Part shown: positions 1,589 to 25,737 of the stretch, piece by piece
How the letters are laid out: each line of letters starts with the position of its first letter
Position numbering within the stretch: the first letter of the stretch is position 1
Source of the DNA: an uncultured Acidobacteriota bacterium
GTDB taxonomy: Bacteria; Acidobacteriota; Blastocatellia; Pyrinomonadales; Pyrinomonadaceae
Length of the DNA: 32,000 bases
Reading direction: 5' to 3'
Assembly (NCBI GenBank): GCA_963705225.1
Contig: OY970060.1
Span: 636,501-668,500 of the forward strand
Translations under genes and position numbers: made by a program
Notes under the pieces: generated by a model
Databases searched by the model: none
Told to the model about the DNA's origin: nothing
What the model saw: the letters and a program-made list of their open reading frames with translations, nothing else

Positions 1589-3058
1589 ATGGAAGAAATC
1601 GAGTTAATTGAACCTATGCCCGATGGCGAAGAAGTGATCGTTACCGCACCATCTGACCAAGCCGCACCGAAGAAATACGACCGTTCGATCGTCGAAGGCC
1701 CGCTCGGCAGCGCCGTCTGGAAGATCGCGTGGCCGGCGATCCTGACAAATTTATTCAGCGGCCTGCAGGGCTGGGTCGATCAGATCATGGTCGGCAATCT
1801 GATCGGTTACCAGGCGAACGCCGCGATCGGATTGGCTTTCCAGATATTCCTGGTGGTGATCGTGTTTATTTCGTCGATCTTTATCGGCATGAGCGTGATG
1901 GTCGCGCGTTTTGCCGGGGCCAACGACCACGAAAAGGTTAATCGCACCGTCTATCAGGGGTTTCTCACCGCGATCGTTATGTCGCTGGGGATACTGGCGC
2001 CGATCGGTTATTTCTCGGCGCCTTACCTGCTCAGAATGGTCAGCTCCGACGCGGCAGTACTGGCGGAGGCGCTTCCGTTTCTGCGGATAATGTTCGTTTT
2101 CAGCATCGGGATGCTGATCTATTTTCTGCTCAGCGGCGCGCTCCGCTCAGCCGGTGACGCGCGGACGCCGATGGTGCTGGGCGTGGTGATGACCGTGCTG
2201 AATCTTATCTTCAATATCATTTTAATTCGCGGCCTGGGGCCGATACCCGCATTCGGCACCGCCGGGGCGGCGATCGGAACCTGCCTGGCGGCCGGAATAG
2301 TCGGAGTTTATTCTCTCTGGCGGCTGACTGCCGGGGGCTGGGTGGTTTCTTTTCCAAAAAGCGGCTATGCGCCCGACTGGAAAGTGATCAGACAGCTTTT
2401 TAAATTCGGGCTTCCCGCCGGGATCCAGGGCATCGCGATGAACGTCGGCGGCGTGATGATGTACTGGTTCATGGGTTCGCTGGCAAACAGCGCGGCGGCG
2501 CAGGCCGCTTATGCGGTGTCTTACGGCCAGCTATTTTTGCTGATCACCTGGTCGTCCAACGCGCTGATGGGAGCGTCGGCCACCGTCGCCGGACAAAATC
2601 TGGGTGCGGGTAACCCCGACCGCGCCAATGCGGCCGTTCACACTGCCGCCCGGATCGGTCTTACGGGAGCGGCTTTCGCCGGGATCTTTTTCTTTTTCTT
2701 TCCCGCTCAATTGCTCGGAATTTTCGGCATGAGAGAGCCCGCGGTGGTCGAGATCGGCATCCAGTTACTGCGGGTGCTCAGTGTTTCGGGGCTGTTTATC
2801 GCCGGGGCGCTGGCGTACACCGGCGGCCTGCAGGGCACTGGCGACACCAAAAGCCCGCTTTACATTTCGATCATCTCGCAGGTGGTGCTTCCGCTCGGCA
2901 TCTGTTTTGTCATCTCAAAAATCATGACGCTCGATCCGATACATATCTGGCTGGCGATCCTGGCCGGCCACATGACGCGCTGCGCGCTCAGCTTCCTCCG
3001 GTTCAACCAGGGCAAATGGCGTTCGATCAAAGTCGATCTCGAACACACAGCGGCTTAA
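1589..3058 (+). CDS. MATE family efflux transporter
   Basis: The 489-aa ORF is hydrophobic along its whole length. The N-terminal block VWKIAWPAILTNLFSGLQGWVDQIMVGNLIG matches the classic MATE/NorM opening motif. A second half-repeat block is LFKFGLPAGIQGIAMNVGGVMM. Confidence 0.9.
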   Translation: MEEIELIEPMPDGEEVIVTAPSDQAAPKKYDRSIVEGPLGSAVWKIAWPAILTNLFSGLQGWVDQIMVGNLIGYQANAAIGLAFQIFLVVIVFISSIFIGMSVMVARFAGANDHEKVNRTVYQGFLTAIVMSLGILAPIGYFSAPYLLRMVSSDAAVLAEALPFLRIMFVFSIGMLIYFLLSGALRSAGDARTPMVLGVVMTVLNLIFNIILIRGLGPIPAFGTAGAAIGTCLAAGIVGVYSLWRLTAGGWVVSFPKSGYAPDWKVIRQLFKFGLPAGIQGIAMNVGGVMMYWFMGSLANSAAAQAAYAVSYGQLFLLITWSSNALMGASATVAGQNLGAGNPDRANAAVHTAARIGLTGAAFAGIFFFFFPAQLLGIFGMREPAVVEIGIQLLRVLSVSGLFIAGALAYTGGLQGTGDTKSPLYISIISQVVLPLGICFVISKIMTLDPIHIWLAILAGHMTRCALSFLRFNQGKWRSIKVDLEHTAA

Positions 3059-3070
3059 GATAAGCGTTCT

Positions 3071-3125
3071 AAGTCACGCCTTCGGGCGGCTCTTCGTTCA
3101 GAGTTCAAGCTTTAGCTTGTCTTAA
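3071..3125. repeat. REP-C element
   Basis: The sequence aagtcacgccttcgggcggctcttcgttcagagttcaagctttagcttgtctta shares the core cggcggct(t)cttcgttcagagttcaa with 3831-3882 and 8401-8452. It shares the gagttcaagctttagcttgtctta arm with 24244-24310. Confidence 0.8.
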
Positions 3126-3136
3126 TACTATTGCAG

Positions 3137-3640
3137 TTATTTAGGGCAAGGAGGTGTACTGCTCCATTCCGTCCCTGAATTTTTATACCCGGGGCCGAGC
3201 GGGCCTGCCGTCACGACATTATAATCGCGGTCAACCGCTACCGAATGAATATATGGTTGAAAAGCGTTAGGATTTGTTACGCCTATGACACCCCGCCACA
3301 TCTCTGTGCCGGTCGCGCCGGAGACTTTAACTACCGACCTGTTCCAGGCGGCTACCACGAATACGTCACCATTAGAATCTATTGCCAGATCTTCAATGGG
3401 ATCGGAAAAGGCCCCGAAACGCCAGATCACACTTCCATCCGCTTTAGACATTTTGACCACTTCGGACCCGTTGATACTTCCGATCGCAATGATATCTCCG
3501 GCAGCATCTACGACAACGGCTTCCGCTCTGCTGCCGCAGCCGTTACAGGGAGATATTATCCGTTCCCATGCCAAAGCATCAGACGGCAAAAAAGACAAAT
3601 TGCATAGTACTAGAAAAAAGAGGATTTTTGGCTTACTCAT
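3137..3640 (-). CDS. Small secreted beta-propeller-repeat protein (hypothetical)
   Basis: The 167-aa ORF has a signal peptide, MSKPKILFFLVLCNLSFLPSDALA. It then has three similar ~40-aa repeats (DAAGDIIAIGS..., DSNGDVFVVAA..., VDRDYNVVTAG...) resembling PQQ/SBBP-type propeller blades. The protein is too short to form a full propeller. Confidence 0.6.
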   Translation of the reverse strand: MSKPKILFFLVLCNLSFLPSDALAWERIISPCNGCGSRAEAVVVDAAGDIIAIGSINGSEVVKMSKADGSVIWRFGAFSDPIEDLAIDSNGDVFVVAAWNRSVVKVSGATGTEMWRGVIGVTNPNAFQPYIHSVAVDRDYNVVTAGPLGPGYKNSGTEWSSTPPCPK

Positions 3641-3780
3641 TGTAGGTTCTCCTTGAAGAATATGGGAAAAGTAAGGAGCTATCCATCACCGTCGCTAATC
3701 GGGTAATACCAGGCTCCCGAAAAATTAACCGTTTATTATTGGGGAACTCAATATATACCCTTACAACAGTGATGTAAAGA

Positions 3781-3828
3781 GTTTGTGAGCGCAGCGGCAC
3801 GCCAAAAAGCCGATTTGAGATAGGATAA
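3781..3828 (+). pseudogene. Relic 3' end (last 15 codons plus stop) of an ArsR-type regulator paralogous to 7765..8397
   Basis: The fragment gtttgtgagcgcagcggcacgccaaaaagccgatttgagataggataa translates to VCERSGTPKSRFEIG*. The intact gene ends VCDRTGAPKCRFEIG* (8350-8397). By hand count, 44 of 51 nucleotides are identical. An in-frame TAA lies 6 nt upstream (3775-3777), so only the tail survives. Confidence 0.75.
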
Positions 3829-3830
3829 GT

Positions 3831-3882
3831 TAAGCCCCGTCCTTCAGGCGGCTTCTTCGTTCAGAGTTCAAATCTCAGCAGG
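3831..3882. repeat. REP-C element
   Basis: The sequence taagccccgtccttcaggcggcttcttcgttcagagttcaaatctcagcagg has the same core and orientation as 3071-3125 and 8401-8452. Confidence 0.8.
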
Positions 3883-4064
3883 CCGACCTTCCGCGCGCCG
3901 CCAGACCGAATAAAGTTCGTAAATAACAGCTGCCAGTGAGCGGTTTCTATTTTAACTTTTCTTTTTGGTAATTTCTGTATATAATTCCACCGCTCCTACA
4001 ACTATTTAATGTTTTAACACTCTGTTCGCCGCCTTGTCTGCGAACTCCCATAAAGTATAAATAT

Positions 4065-7000
4065 ATGAGCGAAACTGCCCACAAATTAGTTAAAGGCGTT
4101 AAAAGTGTAGGAGATTTTCTTGGCGATGCATTCGATGCTTTTAAGGATAGCAAGTTTATTGAAACAATCGAAAAAGCTTCTCCATGGCTCGGGCTGGTTG
4201 GTGAGGCCGGGGCCGAAGCACTTCCCCCTCTTAAATTTGTCACTAAAATCGCCAATGAATTCTTAAAAGAAACTGATCCTGAAAAAATAGGTTTTACCGC
4301 GTGTACTATCGCTTTTCAAAACTCAGTAGTAACTGCATTTAAGAAGATCGGCGGCCCGGCCGGGGAAAAGCAAGCGATCAAAAAAGCCAAAGAACAACTA
4401 AAAGAAGTTGAAAATTTTGATGAGGTCGATGTAGGGACACTTAAACTCGATAATGCTTTAAATCATGAATTTTATATAAAGTCCCTTCTGTGCTTTGAAG
4501 TTGCTGCCAAAAATGTCGGATATGTCGATAGCCAGGTTGAAGATCTAACCTTAATAATTCAGGAAAATTTCATCCATTCTCTTATAAAACTTCTATCTGA
4601 CGGCTCTGATAAAGATAAATTCCGGTCGTTTAAGGACTATCTGAAATTAGGCGGTCCGGAAGAAAAAAATGTCAGAAAGATGTTGGCGCAGCACGCCAAC
4701 TACCAAAGATGGTTGTTCGAGCAGGAGGCGGTGCTAAAAGTTTCGCCCTTTGCCTTAAAGCACATTTACGTCGATACCGACTGCAAGAAAACGACCTGGG
4801 GCGAGATGGACGGCTCCCGTGACAAACGGGCGGGTTTTCTTAGTGATGATCGCGCGGATCGGGAGCCGCTGCTGGAAACGGTCATCGACTTGATAAAATC
4901 TCCGGATCTGAAAGACGCCATCATCATTCAGGGCACCGCGGGTTCCGGCAAATCTTCGTTCACTCTAAAACTTTACGATGAATTATTAGAGCGCCGGCTG
5001 CATCCGATCCGTGTGCGGATCAAAGACCTTAGCTTCAGTTCCACGCTCGATATCAGGGACGACCTGCCGAAATCCATCAGATTCGGAGAAGGAGAAGATT
5101 CTAAGGATGAGCGATTGGACGAGAAAACTTTATTTTTGGACGGCCGGATTTTCGATGAACGAGGCGTGGGTGAATTTTCGCATATCAGCAAATACGTGAT
5201 CATTTTGGACGGCTGGGATGAAATCAATCTTTCCAACGAAGGGTTTAAGAATAAAGTTGCGCGAATGCTAAACCAGATCAATGACAGCTTCCTGCGCCGC
5301 GCTAACCCTCGTGTCCGCGTGATCCTGACCGGACGGCCGTCGAGCGATCTTGGCGATACCCAATGTCTCCGCGCTAATTCCCCTTTCCTGAATATTCCCC
5401 GGCTTACCCCCGAACAGCTGCGAAGCTATATTGCGGGTCTGAGAAACGCGGTCAATGCAAAGAAACCACCGATCCCGCGCACCGAATTAACGGAAAGTTG
5501 GATAGTTCCGGACGACGAGCGCTTCGAACCGATGATCAGGCAGTACGAAAAGGCGTTTGACAACCAGGGACAAAACGAATCGAGCGCGCTGGATATTTTA
5601 GGGCTTCCCTTGCTTGCCCATTTGACCGTTCGCCTGGTCGCCGAGTGGGAAGGCGATCTGACGCCGCTGCTGGAAAACCCAACCACGCTGTATCGGCACC
5701 TGATCGATCTGACCTGTAAGGAAGCCGGAAAAGTAGGTGACGAGAGTCAGGGTCAATATAAGATATACGGAGAATCGCTCAGGAGCCTGCTCTGGCAAAC
5801 CGCGCACGCGATCACCTTATCCGGCAGCGAAAACATCTCGCGTCTGGAATTGATCTCGCGCCTTAATATGGAAGACGGTGTTTTCGACAAAACCCTCACC
5901 GAACTGGAAAAGGAAAATAAACTATCTTCGCTGCTGATCAGTTTTTATTTTAAGGGCGGGCTTTCCCACCTCGGCTGTGAATTTGCTCATAAATCTTTCC
6001 GCGAATATCTTTTTGCTGAGGCGGTAATAGAGGCTTTAAAAAAGTACGGCCGGGATCAAAAGACCGTGCTGCCGCCGCGAGCAAACTACTGGGAAGATTT
6101 TCCGGAAACGATACAGAACGATTACAGGTTCCGGCTTTCCCGTGAGCTTGCAATGCTGCTCTCCCCGCAGTGGATAGTGCCGGAAGTGGCAAATCATTTG
6201 CGGCAGCTGATCAAATGGGAAATCGGGCGCACCCTCAACCCGGAGAAAGCAAAACAGCCGGGCATGCCAACCGCCGCCCTGACCCTGGAAGAATGGGGCC
6301 ATATCAGAAACGGGCTGACCGACCTGTGGGAATGGTGGGGCGAGGGCGTTCATTTGCGTCCGCAAAGGTCCCGGAATCAGTACACGGGCGCGGTCGAATT
6401 AGGAGACATTGCCTATGTCAATAACCTGATAAGGTGGAGCGCCCCGCGCGATGAGCGTATCCAGAACTGGGCGCCCGCCAGAACTGCGGCGGTGGACGCG
6501 CATCTGGGAGACGGGCTATTCCTGCTTTGCACCGCGGTTTACGCCGAAATGACATTTACCGATGCGGAAGAAAAGCTTAGGGAAATGGAATCAAAGCCCT
6601 ATCGATCTGTCAGGGAGGTAACCGGCAAGATAATTCTTTCCTTTAAACCATCGGGCGAGCATAGGGGTTATTTCCAAAATTATTCCCATAGAATAAACGG
6701 TGCCGGCTGGAGGCCGGACGGACAGTTCCCTCGTAAGTGTCATATAAAATTTACTGATTTTGAGTGGTGCAATTTATATTTAAGCTGCTTTGACCATACA
6801 CAGGCAGGTCATGCCCGCTTTCGAAATGCCATCGCCGGTAATGCCTCTTTTTGGAAATCAGACTTAGAAAGCGCTGATTTTCAAGGCGCAAGTTTGTTAT
6901 ACACTGACTTTTTAGCGAGTAATCTCTGGAATGGGAATTTCGTTAATACCGATCTTGATTATACAAATTTAAGAGAGGTAACAATTCTTAATGCAAACTT

Positions 7001-7175
7001 TGAAGGATCGAGGTGGGAGCAAGTCAGACTTGAAGATGCAGAAATAGACTTTACGGTAACGAAGGTGGACGGTTTCGAAAGTTCCGTATTCGATTCAGTC
7101 CGTTTCAATGGACAAAGCATGTCACGAGAAAAACTCTTTAAACAACTGGAAGAACAGGAAGAAAACCCGGATTAA
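4065..7175 (+). CDS. NACHT-type STAND NTPase with an unassigned N-terminal helical domain and a C-terminal pentapeptide-repeat domain
   Basis: This is a 1036-aa ORF. Walker A is IIIQGTAGSGKSSF (nt 4932-4955 encode GTAGSGKS). Walker B is KYVIILDGWDEI (nt 5196-5222). NACHT-typical downstream motifs are RVILTGRPS, LGLPLLAHL and HKSFREYLFAEA (compare FxHxSFQEFLAA in NLRs). The C-terminus, from about nt 6765-7055, contains A(D/N)LxX-type pentapeptide repeats such as ADFQGASLLYTDFLASNLWNGNFVNTDLDYTNLREVTILNANFEGSRW. I could not assign aa 1-285 to any domain. Confidence 0.85.
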   Translation: MSETAHKLVKGVKSVGDFLGDAFDAFKDSKFIETIEKASPWLGLVGEAGAEALPPLKFVTKIANEFLKETDPEKIGFTACTIAFQNSVVTAFKKIGGPAGEKQAIKKAKEQLKEVENFDEVDVGTLKLDNALNHEFYIKSLLCFEVAAKNVGYVDSQVEDLTLIIQENFIHSLIKLLSDGSDKDKFRSFKDYLKLGGPEEKNVRKMLAQHANYQRWLFEQEAVLKVSPFALKHIYVDTDCKKTTWGEMDGSRDKRAGFLSDDRADREPLLETVIDLIKSPDLKDAIIIQGTAGSGKSSFTLKLYDELLERRLHPIRVRIKDLSFSSTLDIRDDLPKSIRFGEGEDSKDERLDEKTLFLDGRIFDERGVGEFSHISKYVIILDGWDEINLSNEGFKNKVARMLNQINDSFLRRANPRVRVILTGRPSSDLGDTQCLRANSPFLNIPRLTPEQLRSYIAGLRNAVNAKKPPIPRTELTESWIVPDDERFEPMIRQYEKAFDNQGQNESSALDILGLPLLAHLTVRLVAEWEGDLTPLLENPTTLYRHLIDLTCKEAGKVGDESQGQYKIYGESLRSLLWQTAHAITLSGSENISRLELISRLNMEDGVFDKTLTELEKENKLSSLLISFYFKGGLSHLGCEFAHKSFREYLFAEAVIEALKKYGRDQKTVLPPRANYWEDFPETIQNDYRFRLSRELAMLLSPQWIVPEVANHLRQLIKWEIGRTLNPEKAKQPGMPTAALTLEEWGHIRNGLTDLWEWWGEGVHLRPQRSRNQYTGAVELGDIAYVNNLIRWSAPRDERIQNWAPARTAAVDAHLGDGLFLLCTAVYAEMTFTDAEEKLREMESKPYRSVREVTGKIILSFKPSGEHRGYFQNYSHRINGAGWRPDGQFPRKCHIKFTDFEWCNLYLSCFDHTQAGHARFRNAIAGNASFWKSDLESADFQGASLLYTDFLASNLWNGNFVNTDLDYTNLREVTILNANFEGSRWEQVRLEDAEIDFTVTKVDGFESSVFDSVRFNGQSMSREKLFKQLEEQEENPD

Positions 7176-7208
7176 TTCGGGTTCCTCCTGTTTCCCAGTT
7201 TCAATTTC

Positions 7209-7610
7209 TTACCGCGCGAATCTTTCGCTTAATCTGCCCAGCGCCAGCGCGCCGAGCGCCAAGCCCAAGTCGCGCAGGGCAACGTCGAAATAGCCGGGTA
7301 TCAACAGCAGATTGATAATTATCACGATCAGCCAGGCCGAAACCACATAGGCAAAAATTCGCGGTTTTACGGCCACGCCAATGCCGGCGATTATTTCGAT
7401 CACGCCGACGGCCAGCATGAGCTCGTGCCCGCGGCCGCCCACCAGATTATTTACCACCGGCGGCACGTATTTGTCCCAGTCGGTCAGGATATGCAAAAAC
7501 TTGTCCAGGCCGGCCAGTATCGGCGCCACGATAAATCCGAATCTTAAGATCCAAAATGCCTGATATGCGGGGTCTTTCGTGCCCGCCGTATTTTCGATGA
7601 CTTCGCTCAT
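7209..7610 (-). CDS. Small integral membrane protein (DoxX-like, tentative)
   Basis: The 133-aa ORF has about four hydrophobic segments. The motif ILRFGFIVAPILAGLDKF and the C-terminal DVALRDLGLALGALALGRL resemble a small membrane-protein family I recall being annotated as DoxX-like. It is divergent from the ArsR-type regulator. Confidence 0.6.
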   Translation of the reverse strand: MSEVIENTAGTKDPAYQAFWILRFGFIVAPILAGLDKFLHILTDWDKYVPPVVNNLVGGRGHELMLAVGVIEIIAGIGVAVKPRIFAYVVSAWLIVIIINLLLIPGYFDVALRDLGLALGALALGRLSERFAR

Positions 7611-7764: not shown

Positions 7765-8397
7765 ATGAAGAGAACCAAAATAGACAACCGCTTTTTTGAG
7801 AGTACCCGGGGAAAGATCGTGCTTCTTTTGCGCATTTCCGACCGGACGGTGGATGATCTGTCGAAAGAAACGGGTGTCACGGACAATGCCGTCCGCGCCA
7901 GTCTGCTCTCGCTCGAACGCGACGGGCTGGTTTTTCAAAACGGATCGGTAAAAGGCCATCGAAAGCCGCATTTTATTTATGCTCTGACCCGCGAAGCCGA
8001 AAGCTTGTTTCCGAAGCCCTTCGATGCCCTGTTCACGAATACCGTGGGGGTTTTGAAGAATAGCTTTTCGTCAAAAAAAGTCGAGCAGATCCTGCGGCAG
8101 ATAGGAGTTCAGATCGGCGGAAAATATTCGGCCGGCGCCGGCAGGTCGGGCAGGTCTGTTGGGGCTCGCCTGGAAACGGCGGTCAGGGCGTTAAACGATC
8201 TCGGCGGAACGGCAGCTGTTTCACAAAATGGAAAGACCGTGATTCGCGGAAAAAATTGTCCGCTGGCGGCGGCGGTCGTCACCCATCCCGAGGTCTGCAA
8301 ACTGGCGGAATCCCTGGTAAGCGAGATCGTCCATTCCAAGGTCACCGAAGTTTGCGACCGCACCGGCGCGCCAAAATGCCGGTTCGAGATAGGATAA
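7765..8397 (+). CDS. ArsR-family (COG2345-like) winged-helix transcriptional regulator
   Basis: This is a 210-aa ORF. The N-terminal wHTH region is TRGKIVLLLRISDRTVDDLSKETGVTDNAVRASLLSLERDGLV. The C-terminal domain is Cys-containing (CPLAAAVVTHPEVCKLAESL...VCDRTGAPKCRFEI), as in the predicted ArsR-type regulators of COG2345. Confidence 0.75.
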   Translation: MKRTKIDNRFFESTRGKIVLLLRISDRTVDDLSKETGVTDNAVRASLLSLERDGLVFQNGSVKGHRKPHFIYALTREAESLFPKPFDALFTNTVGVLKNSFSSKKVEQILRQIGVQIGGKYSAGAGRSGRSVGARLETAVRALNDLGGTAAVSQNGKTVIRGKNCPLAAAVVTHPEVCKLAESLVSEIVHSKVTEVCDRTGAPKCRFEIG

Positions 8398-8400
8398 GTT

Positions 8401-8452
8401 TTGAGTCCCGCTTTCAGGCGGCTTCTTCGTTAAGTTCGAACTTTAACCCGCC
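8401..8452. repeat. REP-C element
   Basis: The sequence ttgagtcccgctttcaggcggcttcttcgttaagttcgaactttaacccgcc follows the regulator stop codon directly. It mirrors the layout at 3829-3882. Confidence 0.75.
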
Positions 8453-8540
8453 TGGCGCATTTCGTGTGATTCCTGATCAGCTCATGGTCAGCTCTTAAAA
8501 AGTAAATGAGTCCAAATAGTGATCCTGTCGATTTTTTTTC

Positions 8541-8568
8541 TTGACGAATGAGAAATCTCTTGTATCAT
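8541..8568 (+). promoter_or_regulatory. Sigma70-like promoter candidate for the 744-aa gene
   Basis: TTGACG (8541-8546) is followed by a 16-nt spacer and TATCAT (8563-8568). This is followed by AGGAG (8618-8622), 5 nt before the ATG at 8628. Confidence 0.4.
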
Positions 8569-8627
8569 TTCCGGGTAAGTATTAAATCCTAATTCCCATA
8601 TTCTTTGTTAAATGCCAGGAGTCCCAT

Positions 8628-10862
8628 ATGCCTAAGAAAGTTAGAATGGAAGGCAGGTACGTCACAGCACAAGATGTTTCGGACCGTCTGATGCCTGATC
8701 TGGATGTCAATGAGGTCTTGTTATGGCCTCCCGATCTTTTTGCCTATACCAGTTACTTAATGACCAAGACCTCGGCTTACCAACTGGTGGTTTCGCCGCC
8801 CACGGGTAAATCATGGCCTCCGAAAACGAAAGAATTGCGGGAGTGGTTGTTTACCGATCCTCCAACGCCAATGAAGGCCGAGTCGAAATGGGACTACTGG
8901 GCTAAATACGGATTAAAAGAATGGAGTTCAGACAACAAGTTCCCGGTTGAGAAAAAAATCGGCGAAATAAAGAATCGGATTTCCTGCAGCGGCGAGTGGA
9001 AGAATTGGGTTCAAAAAGTGGGAAGCAAATGGCGCCGCGCACTCGGAAAGCTAAAGGAAGAAGATTTTCAGGTGATCGATTTAAATAGCTCTGAAAACCT
9101 AAAACGGGATACGCGCGGGCGAAAGAAAATTAAAGACTTGCTTAGAGAGCGCCACGGGAAATTATTGGAAATAGTTTTTAAAGCCACCCCACCCGAAGTA
9201 CTGGCTTGCTGGGCGTTTTTTTATCGAGAGGTTATGCGAAAGAATTTTCACAACAATTCCCGGCTGCGCATTTCGGAATTGTTGTGTAATCAGGATGAGA
9301 TTCAAACAAATGCCGCTCATTGTGAAAGACTCTGGAAAGTGTCACAAGTGCTTTTAACCATGCACGCGATCTCCGACACGGCCAGTGTAAGATTTGATAT
9401 CACCGATTCCGATTCTGAAAACGACCTTGCCACGAAATTTGCCCGGGAACTATTGTTCGGGCGGGATAAAGGCTTTTTCACGGATACAAAATTCAATTCC
9501 GGAGGAAGTTTTTCGACCTTTCATACCGATCGGGTCCGGGTCCTGCCTAAACGGCATAATCCCAACGTAGGCATAACACTGCGCTCGATCTCGAGCAATT
9601 TGGCGTTTAATCAATCCTCAGTCGATGTGGTTTGGCGAAAAACCGTCGATAACCCCCTGGGCAATAGACTTATGCCGCCAAAAACGATTAAAAAAGAAGA
9701 CAAGGAAAACTTTGGAAAAGGTATAAAAATGTCGATGCTGATACTTCCTTTTCCATTAATTGTAAAAACGAATGATTTCCGAATAGATTCTGAAAGTAAA
9801 AATGTCAAAATGAATGATGATTACGGTTTTTTCACTTATGATCCGGATCATACTTTTCAGGAACGACACAAAGAAATCGCTTCAAGTCGCGAAGTCCTGA
9901 AGGCTTTGAAATTGATCAGAAGAGCTAATGAGGAACTTGCCGGCGAAGCGCAAACCGACATGGTTATTTTTCCGGAAGCCGCGCTGAGCGTCACTCAATT
10001 CAACGGCCTGCAGACGGCGCTTCTTAATCCGTTGAATAGTTTTGAGAAATTGAAGGGTGTCTACACCACGCCGCCCAGCATAATCGTTGCCGGAGTAAGA
10101 GAATCCCGGGATGATCTAAAAAAAGAACGAGAAAAAGTAAATCAAGACACGGAAGTAACCTTTCCCCGTAACGCGGTATACTGTCAATACTACGACGCAA
10201 AAAAACATTCATACTTTGTCGAGGCCGATCCCAAAGATAACGACACTCCGACGAACATAAATAAATCGTATAGAACGCCCAAGTTCAAACAATATAAACA
10301 TCATCGCTGGCAGTTGAACGAACGCCAGGTCAAACGTTACGGATTGACCAGCGTATTGGATCCTAAAAAAATATGGTGGGAATCCATCAAAATACCTAAA
10401 CGCAGGGTAAGTTTTCTCAACGTGGGGAAAGTTATCACGATCTCGCATTTGATCTGCGAAGATCTTGCCCGTCTCGATCCTATTTCTGAGCTGATCAGGC
10501 ATGTGGGGCCTACCCTGGTGATCGCAATACTAATGGACGGTCCGCAGGTGAGAAGCCGTTGGTCTGCCCGGTACGCGACGGTTCTGGCGGATGACCCCGG
10601 TTCCTCAGTTATTACTTTAACTTCAATAGGAATGGTCAACCGCGATCATTCGCCTTACGGCTCTTTGTCCCGGGTTGTCGCCTTATGGAATGAAAGCCAT
10701 AGCACGGAGACGCGGGAAATAGAACTCGCGCCGGGGGCGGAGGCGGTCCTGCTTAACCTGGAGATTGACAAACGTTCCGAAAGAACGGCCGACGGGAGAA
10801 AAGAAACAGCGCCGACCGCGATACTTAAGTTGGTCGATGTAATACAAATTTACCCTGACTAA
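8628..10862 (+). CDS. Large orphan protein: novel N-terminal half plus C-terminal nitrilase-superfamily (CN-hydrolase)-like domain
   Basis: This is a 744-aa ORF with a good SD. The C-terminal ~370 aa carry, in the canonical order, MVIFPEAAL (Glu450, nt 9975-9977), QYKHHRWQL (Lys557, nt 10296-10298) and ISHLICEDLARL (Cys610, nt 10455-10457). These are followed by GPTLVIAILMDGP...RYATVLADDPGSSVITLTSIGMV, which resembles the terminal strands of the CN-hydrolase fold. The Glu-to-Lys and Lys-to-Cys spacings are longer than I recall for canonical nitrilases, which suggests insertions. I could not assign aa 1-370. Confidence 0.7.
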   Translation: MPKKVRMEGRYVTAQDVSDRLMPDLDVNEVLLWPPDLFAYTSYLMTKTSAYQLVVSPPTGKSWPPKTKELREWLFTDPPTPMKAESKWDYWAKYGLKEWSSDNKFPVEKKIGEIKNRISCSGEWKNWVQKVGSKWRRALGKLKEEDFQVIDLNSSENLKRDTRGRKKIKDLLRERHGKLLEIVFKATPPEVLACWAFFYREVMRKNFHNNSRLRISELLCNQDEIQTNAAHCERLWKVSQVLLTMHAISDTASVRFDITDSDSENDLATKFARELLFGRDKGFFTDTKFNSGGSFSTFHTDRVRVLPKRHNPNVGITLRSISSNLAFNQSSVDVVWRKTVDNPLGNRLMPPKTIKKEDKENFGKGIKMSMLILPFPLIVKTNDFRIDSESKNVKMNDDYGFFTYDPDHTFQERHKEIASSREVLKALKLIRRANEELAGEAQTDMVIFPEAALSVTQFNGLQTALLNPLNSFEKLKGVYTTPPSIIVAGVRESRDDLKKEREKVNQDTEVTFPRNAVYCQYYDAKKHSYFVEADPKDNDTPTNINKSYRTPKFKQYKHHRWQLNERQVKRYGLTSVLDPKKIWWESIKIPKRRVSFLNVGKVITISHLICEDLARLDPISELIRHVGPTLVIAILMDGPQVRSRWSARYATVLADDPGSSVITLTSIGMVNRDHSPYGSLSRVVALWNESHSTETREIELAPGAEAVLLNLEIDKRSERTADGRKETAPTAILKLVDVIQIYPD

Positions 10863-15266: not shown

Positions 15267-15827
15267 ATGCTGAATCGCATCTACCGTAAGCTTGAAAGCC
15301 TGGCTACTTTGCAGATTTTCGGGATTTTAATTTTTCTTTTCATTCTGTGTTATGGCGGTTTTCAGGAACGAAATAAAGCCCTGGTACCGCAGGTTAGACC
15401 GCTGGCGGCGGTAACTATAAGTCCGCCCGACGGGCGCCCTTACGGTTATTCTCCCCAGGAAGCCGCTGATTTTTTTAAGGAAATAAGAGATGGCGGGCGG
15501 AAAATTTATGCCCTGTCCGAGCTTACCCTGGACGTGTTCTTTCCGTTTATTTACGGCGGGATACTGGTCATTTTGCTGATCACGTACTGGAAGTGGCGGC
15601 ATCTGCTGCTGCTGCCGTTGATTGCCGCCGGCGCCGATCTGCTGGAAAATATCACGCTGGCTTTTCTTGCCTTAAGCTTCGATGGAACGGCTTCGCCGGT
15701 CGCTTACGTCGCTTCTGCCTTCACCGTTATCAAAGGGGCGGGCATTCTTTTATCGCTGCTGCTGATCGTGGCGGGAATGCTTCTGTTTCTGTGGCGCGCG
15801 CTTTTTTCTCCACGCGCTCAGGATTGA
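15267..15827 (+). CDS. Integral membrane hypothetical protein
   Basis: The 186-aa ORF has several clear hydrophobic helices. Confidence 0.6.
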   Translation: MLNRIYRKLESLATLQIFGILIFLFILCYGGFQERNKALVPQVRPLAAVTISPPDGRPYGYSPQEAADFFKEIRDGGRKIYALSELTLDVFFPFIYGGILVILLITYWKWRHLLLLPLIAAGADLLENITLAFLALSFDGTASPVAYVASAFTVIKGAGILLSLLLIVAGMLLFLWRALFSPRAQD

Positions 15828-15962
15828 TTCGGAAGTTTCTGCCCCGAGGCGTCGATCTGGATTTACTGGTGTTATTGGCTTTTACCTCAATAGTGTGAGC
15901 CGCTCGCATCAAAAATCACGGTAAGGAGATTGTTGGATGACAATGATTGGAGGGATTTAAAA

Positions 15963-16445
15963 ATGTCGATAACTTATTCAATTCTGTTTGCGTTCGGTAT
16001 CTGCATCATAGCCGCGATATTTGAAGGCTTATTCGCCGGAAAAAACATAAAACCCTTTCTTGAAAAACTTCGCACCCCGGCATATTCTCCGACATTTGCA
16101 ATCTGGGTTATTATCGGCGTGGGCTATTACGCGATCTGCTTTACTATTCTTTATCGGCTGTTCAGATTTGAGACTGAAAACTCGGTAAGAGATTTAGCGT
16201 TACTAATGTTGCTGAAAGTAATGGCGATCAATGCGCTTTGGAATTATTTTTTCTTTCGCCGCCAAAGCCTGTTTTATAGTAATCTGCTGGCGGTTGGTTA
16301 CTCGCTGATAGCTATTGCTTTATTTATTTGCCTGATTCAGTTTGATGTAATTGCGGCTCTGGTTTTAGTCCCGTACCTGCTTTATCTGATCTATGCGTTT
16401 CGCTGGGGTTATGGATTATGGAAACTCAATCCCGATCTAAGATAA
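15963..16445 (+). CDS. tspO: TspO/MBR-family (tryptophan-rich sensory protein)-like membrane protein
   Basis: It has five hydrophobic segments. TspO-like blocks are LRTPAYSPTFAIWVIIGVGYY, INALWNYFFFRRQS and LVPYLLYLIYAFRWGYGLWKLN. I prefer the ATG at 15963 because GGAGGG lies 8 nt upstream. The track ORF starts at a TTG at 15930. Confidence 0.65.
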   Translation: MSITYSILFAFGICIIAAIFEGLFAGKNIKPFLEKLRTPAYSPTFAIWVIIGVGYYAICFTILYRLFRFETENSVRDLALLMLLKVMAINALWNYFFFRRQSLFYSNLLAVGYSLIAIALFICLIQFDVIAALVLVPYLLYLIYAFRWGYGLWKLNPDLR

Positions 16446-17131: not shown

Positions 17132-19855
17132 ATGAAAATAAAAACTTTTCCGCTGATAGTTTGCCTGCAACTGCTCCTCGCGTTGTCGTTTTCCTTATTC
17201 GCGCAAGATCTGACGGTCAGGCAGATAATGGCCGATCCTTCGCTGGCCGGGATGCGCCCCGAAGCGGAAAGGCTCTCGCCCGACGGCAAAAAAGTCGTCT
17301 TTATGTGGAACGAAAGCGGCAAAGACCCGAAGAACCTCTATCTCTGGAACGGCATCGGCGATGCAAAGGTAATTCTGCGCCCGTCCGACCTCGGGCCGTC
17401 CGCAGCGGGAGGGGACGGCGGACGCGTCGGAAATCCGCTTAGTTACGGCGTCACCGTGCGCGATGAATTCAGCCGACGCGGCGCGGGCGGCATCGGTAAT
17501 CTCGACTGGTCGCCCGATTCGAAAAAGATACTTTTTAGCCAGAGCGGCGATCTCTGGGTGATGGATATCACCAATAATGAATCCGCGTCCGAAGACAATG
17601 TTTTGCGAAATTGGAAGAACGTCGAAACCACGCTTATCCGGCTGACCGATCTGGTGCCGGTGCTGGTCAATGCCGTAAAGCAGGCCGGAGTGCAGGAACC
17701 CGATATCTTTCTAAAAATCGCCGATCTGCGCTCCAAACTTTTGTCCTCTCTCCAGGCCGCGGGAGTAAGGACCGCCTCGCAGCGGCAGGACATCCTGCGA
17801 ACCGGGCAGGCTCTCGCCTCCGCCGCCGGGTCGCTGGTAAAACTGGACGAAAAATATCCGGCGTTAAGATCTAACCAATTATTCAAGGCTTCCTCGGACG
17901 AGGTTCAGGGAGTGTCCAACCGGATCACGGCTGTCAGGTCCGATTTTGACTCCGTGTTAAAAGCGGCGTCTCCGAATATCAAGCGCCTGACCAAAACCCA
18001 GTCGCCGGAAGTTTTCGCCCGCTGGCTGGACAACCGCCGCATAGCTTTTTCGCAGAGCGGAAATATTTTTGTGATCGATACCGAAGGCTTTTCCCTGATC
18101 CAGCTGACCCGCGAAGCCAACCCGGCTGCCTTCATCAGCGTGCAAAATTCCGTCGCCAGTAAAGATGGCAGCGTGATGGCCTACGTCGTCTCCGACAGTT
18201 CGAAACAGCGCCCGCTGGTGGTGCCGAATTACCTGGATGAATTCGTTCAGGCGCAGCCCACGCGGCGCGGTTTCAGCACCGATCAAAAAGTTTTCGTCAC
18301 CAAAACCGACGGCAGCACCGAACGCGTCTTCGAGATCAAACTTCCCAAGCCCGAAGGCGTCGGTTACGTTCGCGGGCTCGACTGGGCCGCCGACAACAGC
18401 AGCCTGATCGTCGACCGCATCGACAAAGACCTGAAACATCGCCAGCTTTTTTATGTCTTTCACGCCGGCGGCAAAGACGAGCAGATAATCACCATCACGG
18501 ACGAGACCGATGACAAATGGATCGCGCCGCTTTCGCGTATGGTCGAGCCGAATCCGAAAGACAACGGTACACTGATGTTCGCTTCGGAAAAAGACGGCTT
18601 TAATCATCTCTACCTGGCGACGCTGCCCCGGCGCGCCGCCGAACCCAATCCGACCGGCGAGCGGCGGCAGGAAAATGTGTCCGATCCCGGTTTTACCGGC
18701 GCGGTAAAGATCGAGCAGCTGACGAAAGGAAACTTCGAGGTCGATTGGGCGAAATGGCAGAGCGACGGTGAAGCCGTCTTTTATTCTTCGACCGAAGACA
18801 GCCCCGCGATCCGGGAATTTTACGCGATCTATCCCGGGCGAAACGCTCAAAAAGTAAGGATCAATACCGCCGCCGGCGGAATGAAGGGCTCCGCCCAGAT
18901 CGCCGACACCGGCGCCAATCCGATGATGCTCTATAGCGGTTCGCAATGGAACAAACCGACCGAGCTTTTTATCGTAAAAATTTGCCCGAATTGCCGCGGC
19001 ATGTCCTATCCGGACCGGGTCACAAATTCGACGCCGGAAGCTTTCGGCAAAATGACCTGGCTCGAACCGAAATTTATCGACATTCCGAGCAAGGACGGCA
19101 AGGTCATCAAGTCCAAGATCTACCTGCCGCCGGGACATACTCCTGCCAGCGCGGGTAAATATCCGATGGTTATTTTCGTGCACGGCGCGGGCTACCTGCA
19201 AAACACCATCAACGGCTGGAATAATTATTACCGCGAGTTCATGTTCAATGAAATGCTGGCGCAAAAAGGCTACGTCGTTTTAGACATCGACTATCGCGGC
19301 TCCGCCGGTTACGGGCGCGACTGGCGCACCGACGTTTATGATTTTCTCGGCGGGCCCGACATGCAGGATCACGTCGATGCGATAGATTTCATGGTCAAAA
19401 ATTATGGGGTCGAGCAGAAAAAGATCGGCGTATACGGCGGCAGCTACGGCGGTTTTATGGCTGAGATGCTGGCCATGCGCGCGCCTGACAAAATAGCGGC
19501 GGCGGCGGCGCTGCGCCCGGTGGCGGACTGGAAAAATTATTTCGCGTCCTCGCCGATCTACACCGCCGAACGCCTGGGCTTTCCCGACAAAAACCCCGAA
19601 GCCTACAAACGCAGCTCGCCGATCGCCTACGCCGACAAGCTGGAACGCCCGCTGCTGATCCTGCACGGGCTGCAGGACGACAACGTCCACGCGCAGGATT
19701 CGATCCAGCTGGCGGAGAAACTCATCCGCCTCGGCAAGACCGAATATTTCGAAATAATGCTCTACCCGGCGGAAAGCCACAGCTTTACCCGCCCCGAAAG
19801 CTGGACCGACGAATATACGAGAATATTGACCTTTTTTGAAAAACACCTAAAATGA
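17132..19855 (+). CDS. S9 family serine peptidase (DPP-IV/acylaminoacyl-peptidase type) with an inserted LemA-like helical module
   Basis: The 907-aa ORF has a signal peptide. The propeller-type N-terminal region contains repeated SPDGKK/SPDSKK-type blade motifs. The catalytic domain has the nucleophile motif GVYGGSYGGFMA, the Asp motif LILHGLQDDNV and the His motif ESHSF. The insertion at about nt 17596-17999 matches LemA motifs (see findings). Confidence 0.9.
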   Translation: MKIKTFPLIVCLQLLLALSFSLFAQDLTVRQIMADPSLAGMRPEAERLSPDGKKVVFMWNESGKDPKNLYLWNGIGDAKVILRPSDLGPSAAGGDGGRVGNPLSYGVTVRDEFSRRGAGGIGNLDWSPDSKKILFSQSGDLWVMDITNNESASEDNVLRNWKNVETTLIRLTDLVPVLVNAVKQAGVQEPDIFLKIADLRSKLLSSLQAAGVRTASQRQDILRTGQALASAAGSLVKLDEKYPALRSNQLFKASSDEVQGVSNRITAVRSDFDSVLKAASPNIKRLTKTQSPEVFARWLDNRRIAFSQSGNIFVIDTEGFSLIQLTREANPAAFISVQNSVASKDGSVMAYVVSDSSKQRPLVVPNYLDEFVQAQPTRRGFSTDQKVFVTKTDGSTERVFEIKLPKPEGVGYVRGLDWAADNSSLIVDRIDKDLKHRQLFYVFHAGGKDEQIITITDETDDKWIAPLSRMVEPNPKDNGTLMFASEKDGFNHLYLATLPRRAAEPNPTGERRQENVSDPGFTGAVKIEQLTKGNFEVDWAKWQSDGEAVFYSSTEDSPAIREFYAIYPGRNAQKVRINTAAGGMKGSAQIADTGANPMMLYSGSQWNKPTELFIVKICPNCRGMSYPDRVTNSTPEAFGKMTWLEPKFIDIPSKDGKVIKSKIYLPPGHTPASAGKYPMVIFVHGAGYLQNTINGWNNYYREFMFNEMLAQKGYVVLDIDYRGSAGYGRDWRTDVYDFLGGPDMQDHVDAIDFMVKNYGVEQKKIGVYGGSYGGFMAEMLAMRAPDKIAAAAALRPVADWKNYFASSPIYTAERLGFPDKNPEAYKRSSPIAYADKLERPLLILHGLQDDNVHAQDSIQLAEKLIRLGKTEYFEIMLYPAESHSFTRPESWTDEYTRILTFFEKHLK

Positions 19856-24368: not shown

Positions 24369-25737
24369 GTTAATAGCAAATGAAGATGTCCTGTTTTGCT
24401 AGCACATTATATGTCCTGTTTTCTGTTGGGGTAAGGAAGGTGAGGTGACCTTTTTTCTCCCAACGTTTGCTTTGCCGAGCGTCCGGTCGAGTGGTTTGCC
24501 GTCGGCCATGTATCTGCCGATCTCCTGCGGCCCGTAACCGATCGTGATGGTGTGGTCGAGGTGCTGGTAGACGACGACGCGGCAGCCTTCCATCGAGCGG
24601 CGCCAGTCCTGCCGGTCGATCTGAAGCGTCAGATTCCTGTATTTGACCGTGTTGTCGCGGTTGACGGTTCGCTCGGTTTGGATCGAGAACACCCGGTCGA
24701 GATCGTTTCTTAGGCAGGGCGCAAAGGCCGATCCTTCCGCTTTTGCCTTGACGGCGAACTTGCGGTCGAATTCCGGTATATATTCTCTCTCGATAAAATG
24801 GTTGGCCTCCTCCGGCGTGGTTATGTTCCTGATCCTGAGCTCTTGTGGAAGGCGTCCCTGCCAGGTGCGAAAGTTTCGCTCGCTGCGGCCTCTGGCTTGC
24901 GGCGAGTAGGCCGGTATCAGCCGGATGCCGAGATCCCTTAAAGCCCTCCCGACCTGCGTCAGTGCCTGACGGTCCACCGGCTCCCCGGCCTTCGGTGTCT
25001 GAAAGAAATGACTCGCCCGGTCAGAGTACAAACTACAGAATACTCCTTTTGTTTCTATCACTTTGCGAATACCCTCCATTACCGAGCGCGTCGATTCGGC
25101 TGCCACCAGCCGCGCATAACAGATCTCGGAGGTAGCGTCGTCGAGCAGCACTATCAGATCGTGCCACCTCTCATCTCCAAACCACTGGTGATGCGACCCG
25201 TCGATATGGAGCAGCATCCCCGCTATCGCTTTACGCTCCCGCTTCCTCCGGTGCTTCTTCCTCGCCTTCTCCTTCGCAATCAACCCTGACCCTTGCAGCA
25301 GGTTCTTCACCCAGGTGTAGCTCAGCCCGAGCACATGTCTTTCACTCAGCTTCTCGTGAAAATGGGCCACGCTGAAATCGAAATACTCTTCCCGATACAG
25401 TCGCAGCACCTCTTCCACCACCTTAACCGGCGTCCGTCTCGGACTCTCCTTTCCCACCCGACCGTCGTGCAAACCGTCGAAACCTGCCCTCGCGTAAGCC
25501 TCCCGCACCCGCTGCAAATGCCGGTAGCTCATCCCCAATATATCCGCCGCCTCTATCCACGTGATCTTTTTCGCGTACGCACGCAATATGATCTCCTGTC
25601 TTTTCATCGCCTTCTCCACTGCGGTTCCCGGGTTATATCTCATAGCTTTTCTCCAAAGCTATTCTCCAACACCCCTCAACCACCCAAAGAGGACATTTCA
25701 TCTGCTACTTCAACAGGACATATGATGTGCTAGCTAC
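24369..25737 (-). mobile_element. Intact insertion sequence, rve/DDE transposase, ISNCY/IS1202-like (family assignment tentative)
   Basis: A near-perfect 23-bp IR pairs gctagcacattatatgtcctgtt (24398-24420) with aacaggacatatgatgtgctagc (25712-25734). A second, degenerate copy of the left IR lies at 24369-24397. A perfect 19-bp direct repeat, atttattaaaattttgtct, lies at 24350-24368 and 25738-25756, immediately outside 24369 and 25737. Confidence 0.8.
24399..25643 (-). CDS. DDE transposase (N-terminal HTH plus integrase-core/rve domain)
   Basis: This is a 414-aa ORF. The HTH region is ITWIEAADILGMSYRHLQRVREAY. Candidate DDE residues are in LLHIDGSHH, LYSDRASHF and SPQARGRSERNFRTWQGRL. The stop codon lies inside the left IR. 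Confidence 0.85.
   Translation of the reverse strand: MRYNPGTAVEKAMKRQEIILRAYAKKITWIEAADILGMSYRHLQRVREAYARAGFDGLHDGRVGKESPRRTPVKVVEEVLRLYREEYFDFSVAHFHEKLSERHVLGLSYTWVKNLLQGSGLIAKEKARKKHRRKRERKAIAGMLLHIDGSHHQWFGDERWHDLIVLLDDATSEICYARLVAAESTRSVMEGIRKVIETKGVFCSLYSDRASHFFQTPKAGEPVDRQALTQVGRALRDLGIRLIPAYSPQARGRSERNFRTWQGRLPQELRIRNITTPEEANHFIEREYIPEFDRKFAVKAKAEGSAFAPCLRNDLDRVFSIQTERTVNRDNTVKYRNLTLQIDRQDWRRSMEGCRVVVYQHLDHTITIGYGPQEIGRYMADGKPLDRTLGKANVGRKKVTSPSLPQQKTGHIMC

Follow-up and report, generated by a model that had tools for sequence, protein, structure and literature searches.

Bacterial proteins that join an N-terminal helical domain to a STAND NTPase of the NACHT type and to C-terminal pentapeptide repeats have been described before. 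In the accessible part of Table S1 of Kibby et al. 2022 (bioRxiv 10.1101/2022.07.19.500537), the combination of NNH3 or NNH4 with NACHT and Pentapeptide constitutes NACHT clade 9, every entry containing the string "NNH3" is a clade 9 row, and EAD10, REC or the toxin domain Ntox49 occurs in variants of the clade. That study also counts pentapeptide repeats as sensors of the superstructure-forming "antigen receptor type", and gives D[GAS]hDE as the signature separating NACHT from other STAND clades. In this study, a gene of the same kind was analyzed in a stretch of 32,000 nucleotides (hereafter the window) from an uncultured Acidobacteriota bacterium of the Pyrinomonadaceae (GenBank assembly GCA_963705225.1, contig OY970060.1, positions 636,501 to 668,500 of the forward strand). 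The gene is a complete open reading frame (ORF) with an ATG start at 4065..7175 on the + strand, and encodes a STAND NTPase of 1036 amino acids (aa) with an NNH3-like domain, a NACHT module and pentapeptide repeats. The feature is real: an intact bacterial gene, complete on its own, that is related to the animal NLR immune receptors. The main new result is that it is a horizontally acquired accessory gene. An earlier note, made from the sequence without database searches, had described a solo NACHT/STAND NTPase in which a helical N-terminus comes first and pentapeptide repeats form the C-terminus. This tripartite, NLR-like layout is correct and the Walker motifs are intact, but since NNH3 + NACHT + Pentapeptide already stands in Table S1 as clade 9, the layout is catalogued rather than novel. 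The protein very probably belongs to this kind.

The NACHT gene lies within an insertion of about 4.16 kb relative to related genomes (3058..7214, no strand assigned), which is delimited by breaks in DNA homology and carries, besides the NACHT gene, one small ORF with a low G+C content at third codon positions (GC3). DNA homology to four syntenic, Pyrinomonadaceae-like loci, L080-L083 (in the analysis, Lxxx denotes loci and Pxxxx homologous proteins), stops at about window position 3057 and resumes at about 7215; the same interval measures about 125 bp in L081. The backbone proteins of these loci are 58-92% identical to those of the window, and their order is kept: MatE, a 132-aa gene, an ArsR-like regulator, Ysc84, an acid phosphatase, an S9 peptidase and epimerases, the 132-aa gene and the ArsR-like regulator being present in L081 and L083 only. 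Orthologues of the flanking MatE protein are 73-97% identical, and the named ones belong to Pyrinomonadaceae or Acidobacteria. The NACHT gene, the ORF at 3137-3640 and the ORF at 8628-10862 were absent from all four relatives in tblastn searches, and all three are among the low-GC3 genes of the window (0.52 for the NACHT gene and 0.48 for ORF 3137-3640, against 0.62-0.76 for most backbone genes). The closest NACHT homologues, with 60% identity in L084 and 48-53% in L001-L003, come from the same class; none of these four loci has a backbone gene in common with the window, which means that the sites are unrelated. Homologues are distributed patchily across many phyla (79 loci). No tRNA gene was found at the border of the island. 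Because the gene is missing from syntenic relatives, is low in GC3, has homologues at unrelated loci and is patchily distributed, these comparisons indicate that it is accessory and mobile and was acquired horizontally by a Pyrinomonadaceae-like acidobacterium. The locus offers a clean natural example of a NACHT gene as a discrete insertion of about 4 kb into a conserved backbone.

The NACHT assignment draws on conserved motifs and on profile matches. The nucleotide-binding domain (aa 285-456; 4917..5432, + strand), delimited by its PF05729 match, includes the Walker A, Walker B and TGRP motifs. Walker A, GTAGSGKS (aa 290-297), fits GxxxxGK[ST], and its G293, G295 and K296 do not vary among the 43 aligned family members, to which all statements of invariance and all counts of members out of 43 refer. 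Equally invariant are the five residues D382-G383-W384-D385-E386 of Walker B, VIILDGWDE (aa 378-386), and T422-G-R-P425 within RVILTGRPS (aa 418-426). DGWDE fits D[GAS]hDE, as expected of NACHT rather than of another STAND type. The helical and winged-helix part of the module, predicted from motif conservation, would span aa 457-654 (5433..6026, + strand); it includes LGLPLLAHL (aa 512-520) and ends in the invariant H642-KSFRE. In the terminal block, HKSFREYLFAEA (aa 642-653), the residues H642, K643, S644, F645, R646 and E647 do not vary, and H642-KSFRE-YL sits, as far as sequence alone can tell, where the winged-helix histidine motif is expected. The ORF and all motifs quoted in the earlier note were recovered at the residues it gave. 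In a hidden Markov model search, the protein matched PF05729 (NACHT) over aa 285-456 and model positions 2-160 of 167, with an E-value of 5.4e-5 and 23.5 bits, a score below the Pfam gathering cut-off. NACHT was matched by 42 of the 43 members at E <= 0.01, and some homologues reach the cut-off (P0098, 28.6 bits; P0031, 26.9 bits). The nucleotide-binding domain is the most conserved region of the family (mean pairwise identity 0.53), with the helical and winged-helix part at 0.48. The window protein has the family-wide residue at 61 of 61 invariant alignment columns, catalytic motifs included, and about 120 full-length homologues are colinear with it in architecture.

The N-terminal 285 residues had been regarded as unassigned, and thus possibly as a new effector. 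No direct Pfam match was found for aa 1-285 at E <= 0.1, the single line at E <= 1 being a chance match to DUF5703 (E 0.12), and aa 640-900 have no Pfam match at E <= 1. To this extent the earlier view of the two regions stands, but the first of them can be assigned. Residues 1-285 align to residues 30-312 of P0035 with 33% identity (E 1e-41), and these residues of P0035 pass the Pfam cut-off for PF22735, NNH3 ("NACHT N-terminal Helical domain 3"), with 33.2 bits where 27 are required. Of the 43 aligned members, 13 match NNH3. Because the alignment covers the full N-terminus and its partner is itself over the cut-off, aa 1-285 are a divergent NNH3 member by transitive homology, and the argument for a new effector is not supported.

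Two parts can be distinguished within this region. A variable helical module with an NNH3-like core, recognized by homology to NNH3-bearing members, occupies the usual effector or adaptor position (aa 1-177; 4065..4595, + strand). It is followed by a conserved pre-NACHT region (aa 178-284; 4596..4916, + strand; mean pairwise identity 0.47), which alignments of variants carrying SMEK_N (PF21941) show to be retained when the module is swapped. In P0021, P0023 and P0024, SMEK_N takes the place of the first ~177 aa, and the remainder is 44-58% identical to the window protein; in the N-terminal region, alignment is confined to about the last 108 residues. An exhaustive profile search with aa 1-177 against 1.84 billion representative proteins gave 273 matches, nearly all at the extreme N-terminus, whether in proteins about 1000-1270 aa long or in short ones taken as assembly fragments, and a word-indexed search with the same profile returned only short, partly partial proteins. 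With only 273 matches, nearly all N-terminal, the module is tied to its lineage and not promiscuous. The AlphaFold2 model of aa 1-285 is mostly helical, and all-helical over aa 1-177; its least confident part is the Gly/Ala-rich aa 43-58. The Gly/Ala-rich stretch as a whole, ASPWLGLVGEAGAEALPPLKFV, is located at aa 38-59, as originally described, and is conserved (P40, W41 ... K57), with conserved charged residues among its positions.

A conserved, unnamed α+β domain lies between the NACHT module and the repeats (aa 655-890; 6027..6734, + strand). AlphaFold2 predicts it with high confidence as a compact fold (predicted local distance difference test score, pLDDT, 90.8; predicted template modeling score, pTM, 0.90). 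Its mean pairwise identity of 0.44 puts its conservation on par with that of the NTPase, and W718, W744, W755, W757, W758 and R765 are invariant. The NACHT-to-repeat gap is likewise unannotated in the accessible part of Table S1 of Kibby et al. (bioRxiv 10.1101/2022.07.19.500537). As a confidently predicted domain without annotation, it is a concrete target for structural work. Structure prediction and Foldseek searches, which had been proposed as a check, matched no known effector or adaptor fold in either this domain or aa 1-285; for the α+β domain, this means no match at E <= 0.001 in PDB, the one database searched with it.

The C-terminus is formed by a pentapeptide-repeat β-helix of about 25 pentads, presumed to be the sensor (aa 891-1024; 6735..7136, + strand; PF00805, PF13599 and PF13576), and by a short acidic tail, KQLEEQEENPD, with the stop codon (aa 1025-1036; 7137..7175, + strand). 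The repeats are real, with 33.4 bits for PF00805 against a cut-off of 20.2 and 28.6 bits for PF13576 against 27, but they are slightly longer than the "about 100 aa" first estimated: tandem A(D/N)LXX-type pentads stay in register over about aa 891-1015, and a Qnr model covers aa 887-1024. Such repeats are matched in 41 of the 43 members. They are the fastest-diverging region of the family (mean pairwise identity 0.26), and their length ranges from 82 to 220 aa across homologues. Searched against PDB, the family profile found pentapeptide proteins only, with E-values down to 3.5e-42 for solved pentapeptide β-helices; the matches from the single-sequence search were repeat-summing noise on designed PPR proteins.

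A mechanism may be outlined from general knowledge of STAND and NLR proteins. The pentapeptide β-helix, carried on the α+β domain, would present a ligand-sensing surface and hold the NTPase autoinhibited. A trigger would bind to this surface, and the likeliest candidates are proteins that an invading element brings in or host proteins that have been perturbed; the NACHT module would then exchange its nucleotide through K296 and D382/D385/E386, and would oligomerize. Oligomerization would cluster the NNH3 domains and thereby generate the output, with the recruitment or activation of a further factor more probable than action as an enzyme or a pore. Biologically, the role would most likely be conflict or immunity of an abortive-infection-like type, possibly directed against phages. 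The pentapeptide proteins Qnr and MfpA mimic DNA. Pentapeptide repeats may inhibit DNA-binding proteins (Kaur et al.), and with the mimicry of Qnr and MfpA this makes a bait for phage DNA-binding proteins an attractive possibility. It is doubtful that NNH3 and the α+β domain, as two folds with no solved relative, embody a new output or sensing mechanism in bacterial NLRs, such as a DNA-mimic bait or an NNH3 that acts as executioner or recruits an unlinked host effector. Because the lineage has no recognizable enzymatic effector, NNH3 signaling bears on how effector-less bacterial NLRs produce their output.

The best explanation for the whole, a clade 9-type, NLR-like STAND NTPase that was acquired horizontally and serves in conflict or defence, is moderately probable, and its output step is where it meets a competing idea. 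The earlier note had called the N-terminal domain "possibly membrane-active". Spelled out as a rival explanation, the domain would be a membrane-active or pore-forming executioner which, like HeLo/Bell domains or the coiled coil of plant resistosomes, would be released on oligomerization. The domain is indeed all-helical and stands in the effector position, its first helix (aa 1-24) is strongly amphipathic with a helical hydrophobic moment of 1.6-2.0, its conserved Gly/Ala-rich stretch is modeled with little confidence, which would suit a mobile element, and neither the protein nor a conserved neighbor supplies another effector. However, the first 180 residues are far from transmembrane (TM) hydropathy, never exceeding 0.75 in 18-residue windows taken every 6 residues, and the highest 19-residue Kyte-Doolittle mean of the whole protein (1.63) falls at the LGLPLLAHL helix within the NACHT module. 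No match to the HeLo, HeLo-like, SesA or Goodbye families was found in Pfam at E <= 1, and Foldseek gave none for the model of aa 1-285 in PDB or BFVD; the features of HeLo/Bell-type domains, namely similarity in sequence or fold and a hydrophobic or TM-forming N-terminal segment, are not seen. Membrane insertion of the Gly/Ala-rich aa 38-59 was considered separately and rejected for too little hydropathy and for its conserved charges. In the accessible part of Table S1 of Kibby et al. (bioRxiv 10.1101/2022.07.19.500537), moreover, the clade 9 protein NEO33179.1 has EAD10 added in front of NNH3 and not in its place. EADs connect the regulatory core of conflict systems with effectors, EAD10 being an adaptor, and its position upstream suggests that the terminal effector is something other than NNH3, which would instead be a constant adaptor or regulatory element. 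An executioner function is accordingly improbable, and NNH3 is more likely to be an adaptor, or an interaction domain activated by proximity, than an enzyme or a pore.

A role in conflict or defence is plausible from the pattern of the family: mobility and a patchy distribution, a putative sensor that diverges faster than any other part, swaps of the N-terminal module in some members, variants with EAD10, REC and Ntox49, and multiple copies in Crocosphaera. The solo organization is also typical of bNACHTs shown to be antiphage. Several results weigh against this explanation or parts of it. Placement in clade 9 rests on architecture and NNH3 and not on a tree, and the accessible part of Table S1 has no clade 9 row with the bNACHT (tested) label. 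Taken alone, the PF05729 score of the window protein is borderline, being under the cut-off of 26.7. No solved NACHT was found by sequence in PDB, even with the family profile, which places the lineage far from the solved animal NLRs. The AlphaFold2 model of aa 1-285 reaches moderate confidence (pLDDT 76, pTM 0.65) and has no Foldseek match at E <= 0.001 in PDB or BFVD, and the SMEK_N swaps of the N-terminal module point away from NNH3 as a constant adaptor. With PADLOC-DB v2 there was no significant full-length match (partial matches: mad8, E 0.002; PDC-S20, E 0.007), and the NCBIfam model DS8_antiphage matched the P-loop stretch only, with 25.9 bits against a cut-off of 790. No defence genes stand beside the NACHT gene in the window, where its neighbors are housekeeping genes or belong to no named family. 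Around the homologues, the two neighbors on either side (149 proteins) gave few matches to defence models, none in more than two neighbors per family by raw count: two SduA-like proteins, a PD-T4-6-type kinase-like protein, one PDC-S01, one patatin-like protein and one mad6. The remaining neighbors are ordinary metabolic, transport and regulatory genes. Hence neither the PADLOC match nor the defence-island enrichment that the earlier note had proposed to look for was found.

Such surroundings, in the window and around the homologues, together with the lack of a recognized toxic or enzymatic effector domain, would suit a non-immune signaling STAND NTPase, in which a switch senses an endogenous protein or metabolite through the β-helix and controls a stress response, development or DNA transactions. 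In a 2026 survey, most STAND clades (391 of 589) are not classed as defence-associated. Some pentapeptide proteins are regulators or DNA mimics, the repeats here show a weak likeness to the NCBIfam models of HetL, Qnr and MfpA, and the inhibition of DNA-binding proteins considered by Kaur et al. would also fit a regulatory switch. Yet a fixed regulatory circuit would be expected to keep its partner or its neighborhood, whereas this gene is accessory, low in GC3, patchily distributed and located at different sites in related genomes; its putative sensor diverges fastest, its N-terminal module is swapped, and clade 9 relatives in the accessible rows carry EAD10 or Ntox49, traits more typical of conflict genes. 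A signaling switch of this kind is therefore rather unlikely, though it deserves more weight than the executioner. That the gene, once acquired horizontally, is now decaying or inactive and has no current function is very improbable. The insertion does have a foreign composition and adjoins a fragment-like ORF, the pentapeptide score is well under that of homologues (33 bits against up to 134), and the homologues in L073 (9953-13019), L075 (723-3142) and L076 (9926-12498) are each broken up into two or three successive ORFs, which could be pseudogenization or assembly frameshifts; against this, the 3.1-kb ORF is intact, its invariant columns are all kept, catalytic motifs included, and its full-length architecture is colinear with that of the homologues mentioned above. 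The clade 9-type NTPase with a conflict or defence role is thus the preferred explanation.

The gene forms a transcription unit of its own, with a divergent gene upstream and a convergent one downstream. An AT-rich intergenic region, presumed to hold the promoter and the 5' untranslated region, precedes it (3641..4064, + strand) and separates it from the divergent upstream ORF. A sigma-70 scan found no + strand promoter-like site 5' of the start codon, and the six sites found in the region, against 4.4 expected, are not above chance. A hairpin over the stop codon (7162..7185, no strand assigned), between the two convergent genes, is terminator-like on both strands. No neighbor family recurs beside the homologues in the 79 loci compared. 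The view that the gene has no operon partner is in agreement with its flanking genes, the hairpin and the comparison of neighbors. The G+C counts made by hand in the earlier note are exact (22/60 at 4081-4140, 32/60 at 1741-1800 and 40/60 at 18361-18420). By region, G+C is 43.5% for aa 1-285, 40.4% for the repeats and tail (nt 6765-7175, from aa 901) and 51-53% for the middle of the gene.

Other features of the window were recorded beside the insertion. A direct repeat of about 50 nt, made of a GC hairpin and the exact 18-mer TCTTCGTTCAGAGTTCAA, occurs in two copies in the window, with none expected by chance. Copy 1 lies just after MatE (3084..3108, + strand) and copy 2 lies 763 nt downstream (3847..3871, + strand), and the pair brackets ORF 3137-3640 (- strand). 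This ORF encodes 167 aa with a signal-peptide-like start and a weak match to BamB/PQQ β-propellers, and is fragment-like; the repeat pair around it may be a duplication or an insertion scar. ORF 8628-10862 (+ strand; 744 aa, GC3 0.50) represents another insertion, distinct from the first, which lies between the ArsR-like gene and Ysc84. Searches of Pfam, PADLOC, NCBIfam and PDB sequences gave no family match for it, the single Pfam line being CN_hydrolase at E 0.021, and a functional link with the NACHT gene was rejected because the insertion is separate and no family is matched. Another variable spot at 15267-16445 (+ strand) holds a 186-aa ORF and a TspO/MBR-like ORF (GC3 0.45), with no counterpart in L080-L083. 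Beyond the stretch covered by the related loci, a 414-aa ORF at 24399-25643 (- strand) matches HTH_23, HTH_28 and HTH_32 and is probably an IS630-type transposase. In L084, a DUF87 (PF01935) protein (8145-9848, - strand) lies divergently upstream of P0002, the closest homologue with 60% identity, an arrangement seen at one locus only. Crocosphaera family members are 30-34% identical to the window protein (L027, L031, L033, L036, L050, L052, L054, L055 and L057), and at least three Crocosphaera assemblies have two loci each (L031 and L057, L033 and L054, L036 and L055), in line with the expansion of NACHT paralogues that has been described in cyanobacteria.

Compared with known systems, the protein shares single modules with several and its whole plan with one. 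The right-handed β-helix of its C-terminal ~130 aa is common to Qnr, MfpA, HetL and Np275/276. Those proteins are small and free-standing, some of them DNA mimics, whereas here the repeats are appended to a STAND NTPase, and the weak NCBIfam matches to HetL, Qnr and MfpA stay far under the equivalog cut-offs. Avs proteins follow the same tripartite logic, in which the output domain is N-terminal, a STAND NTPase follows, and repeats at the C-terminus sense phage proteins by binding them; they differ in having recognized nuclease, Sir2 or protease effectors and TPR-like sensors, where the window protein would have a non-enzymatic helical output domain, and no Avs model of PADLOC matched it. Validated bNACHTs, such as bNACHT01 of clade 14, share the NACHT NTPase core, whose Walker A lysine is required for their defence function. 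They too are solo genes with promoters of their own, and their C-terminal region diversifies fast, as do the repeats of the window family. In contrast, bNACHT01 belongs to another clade, comes from Enterobacteria and has a short C-terminal SNaCT instead of repeats, and the PADLOC models miss the window protein. The bNACHTs in the accessible part of Table S2 of Kibby et al. (bioRxiv 10.1101/2022.07.19.500537) come from Enterobacteria and Vibrio only.

In sum, the nearest known system is clade 9. In the accessible rows, NJO80537.1 and WP_118166576.1 have the same domain order and approximate sizes as the window protein and are single-gene systems as well; in NJO80537.1, NNH3 occupies 1-248 and NACHT 296-705, and the pentapeptide repeats start at 825. 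Between NACHT and the repeats, these clade 9 proteins have a gap of about 120-280 aa, which is unannotated, as it is here. Unlike the clade 9 examples, the window protein is too divergent for a direct match to the NNH3 model, so that its assignment is transitive. The domain layout and the likely logic have thus been described before, and current understanding is unchanged; what is still of interest is how NNH3 produces its output, the mid-domain that has no name, and the clean context of the insertion. In part 5 of Table S1, all clade 9 rows with NNH3 are cyanobacterial and no clade 9 row of any kind is from Acidobacteria, whereas the subfamily of the window protein is mainly acidobacterial. 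The gene extends the catalogued NNH3 + NACHT + pentapeptide lineage of clade 9 into Acidobacteriota.

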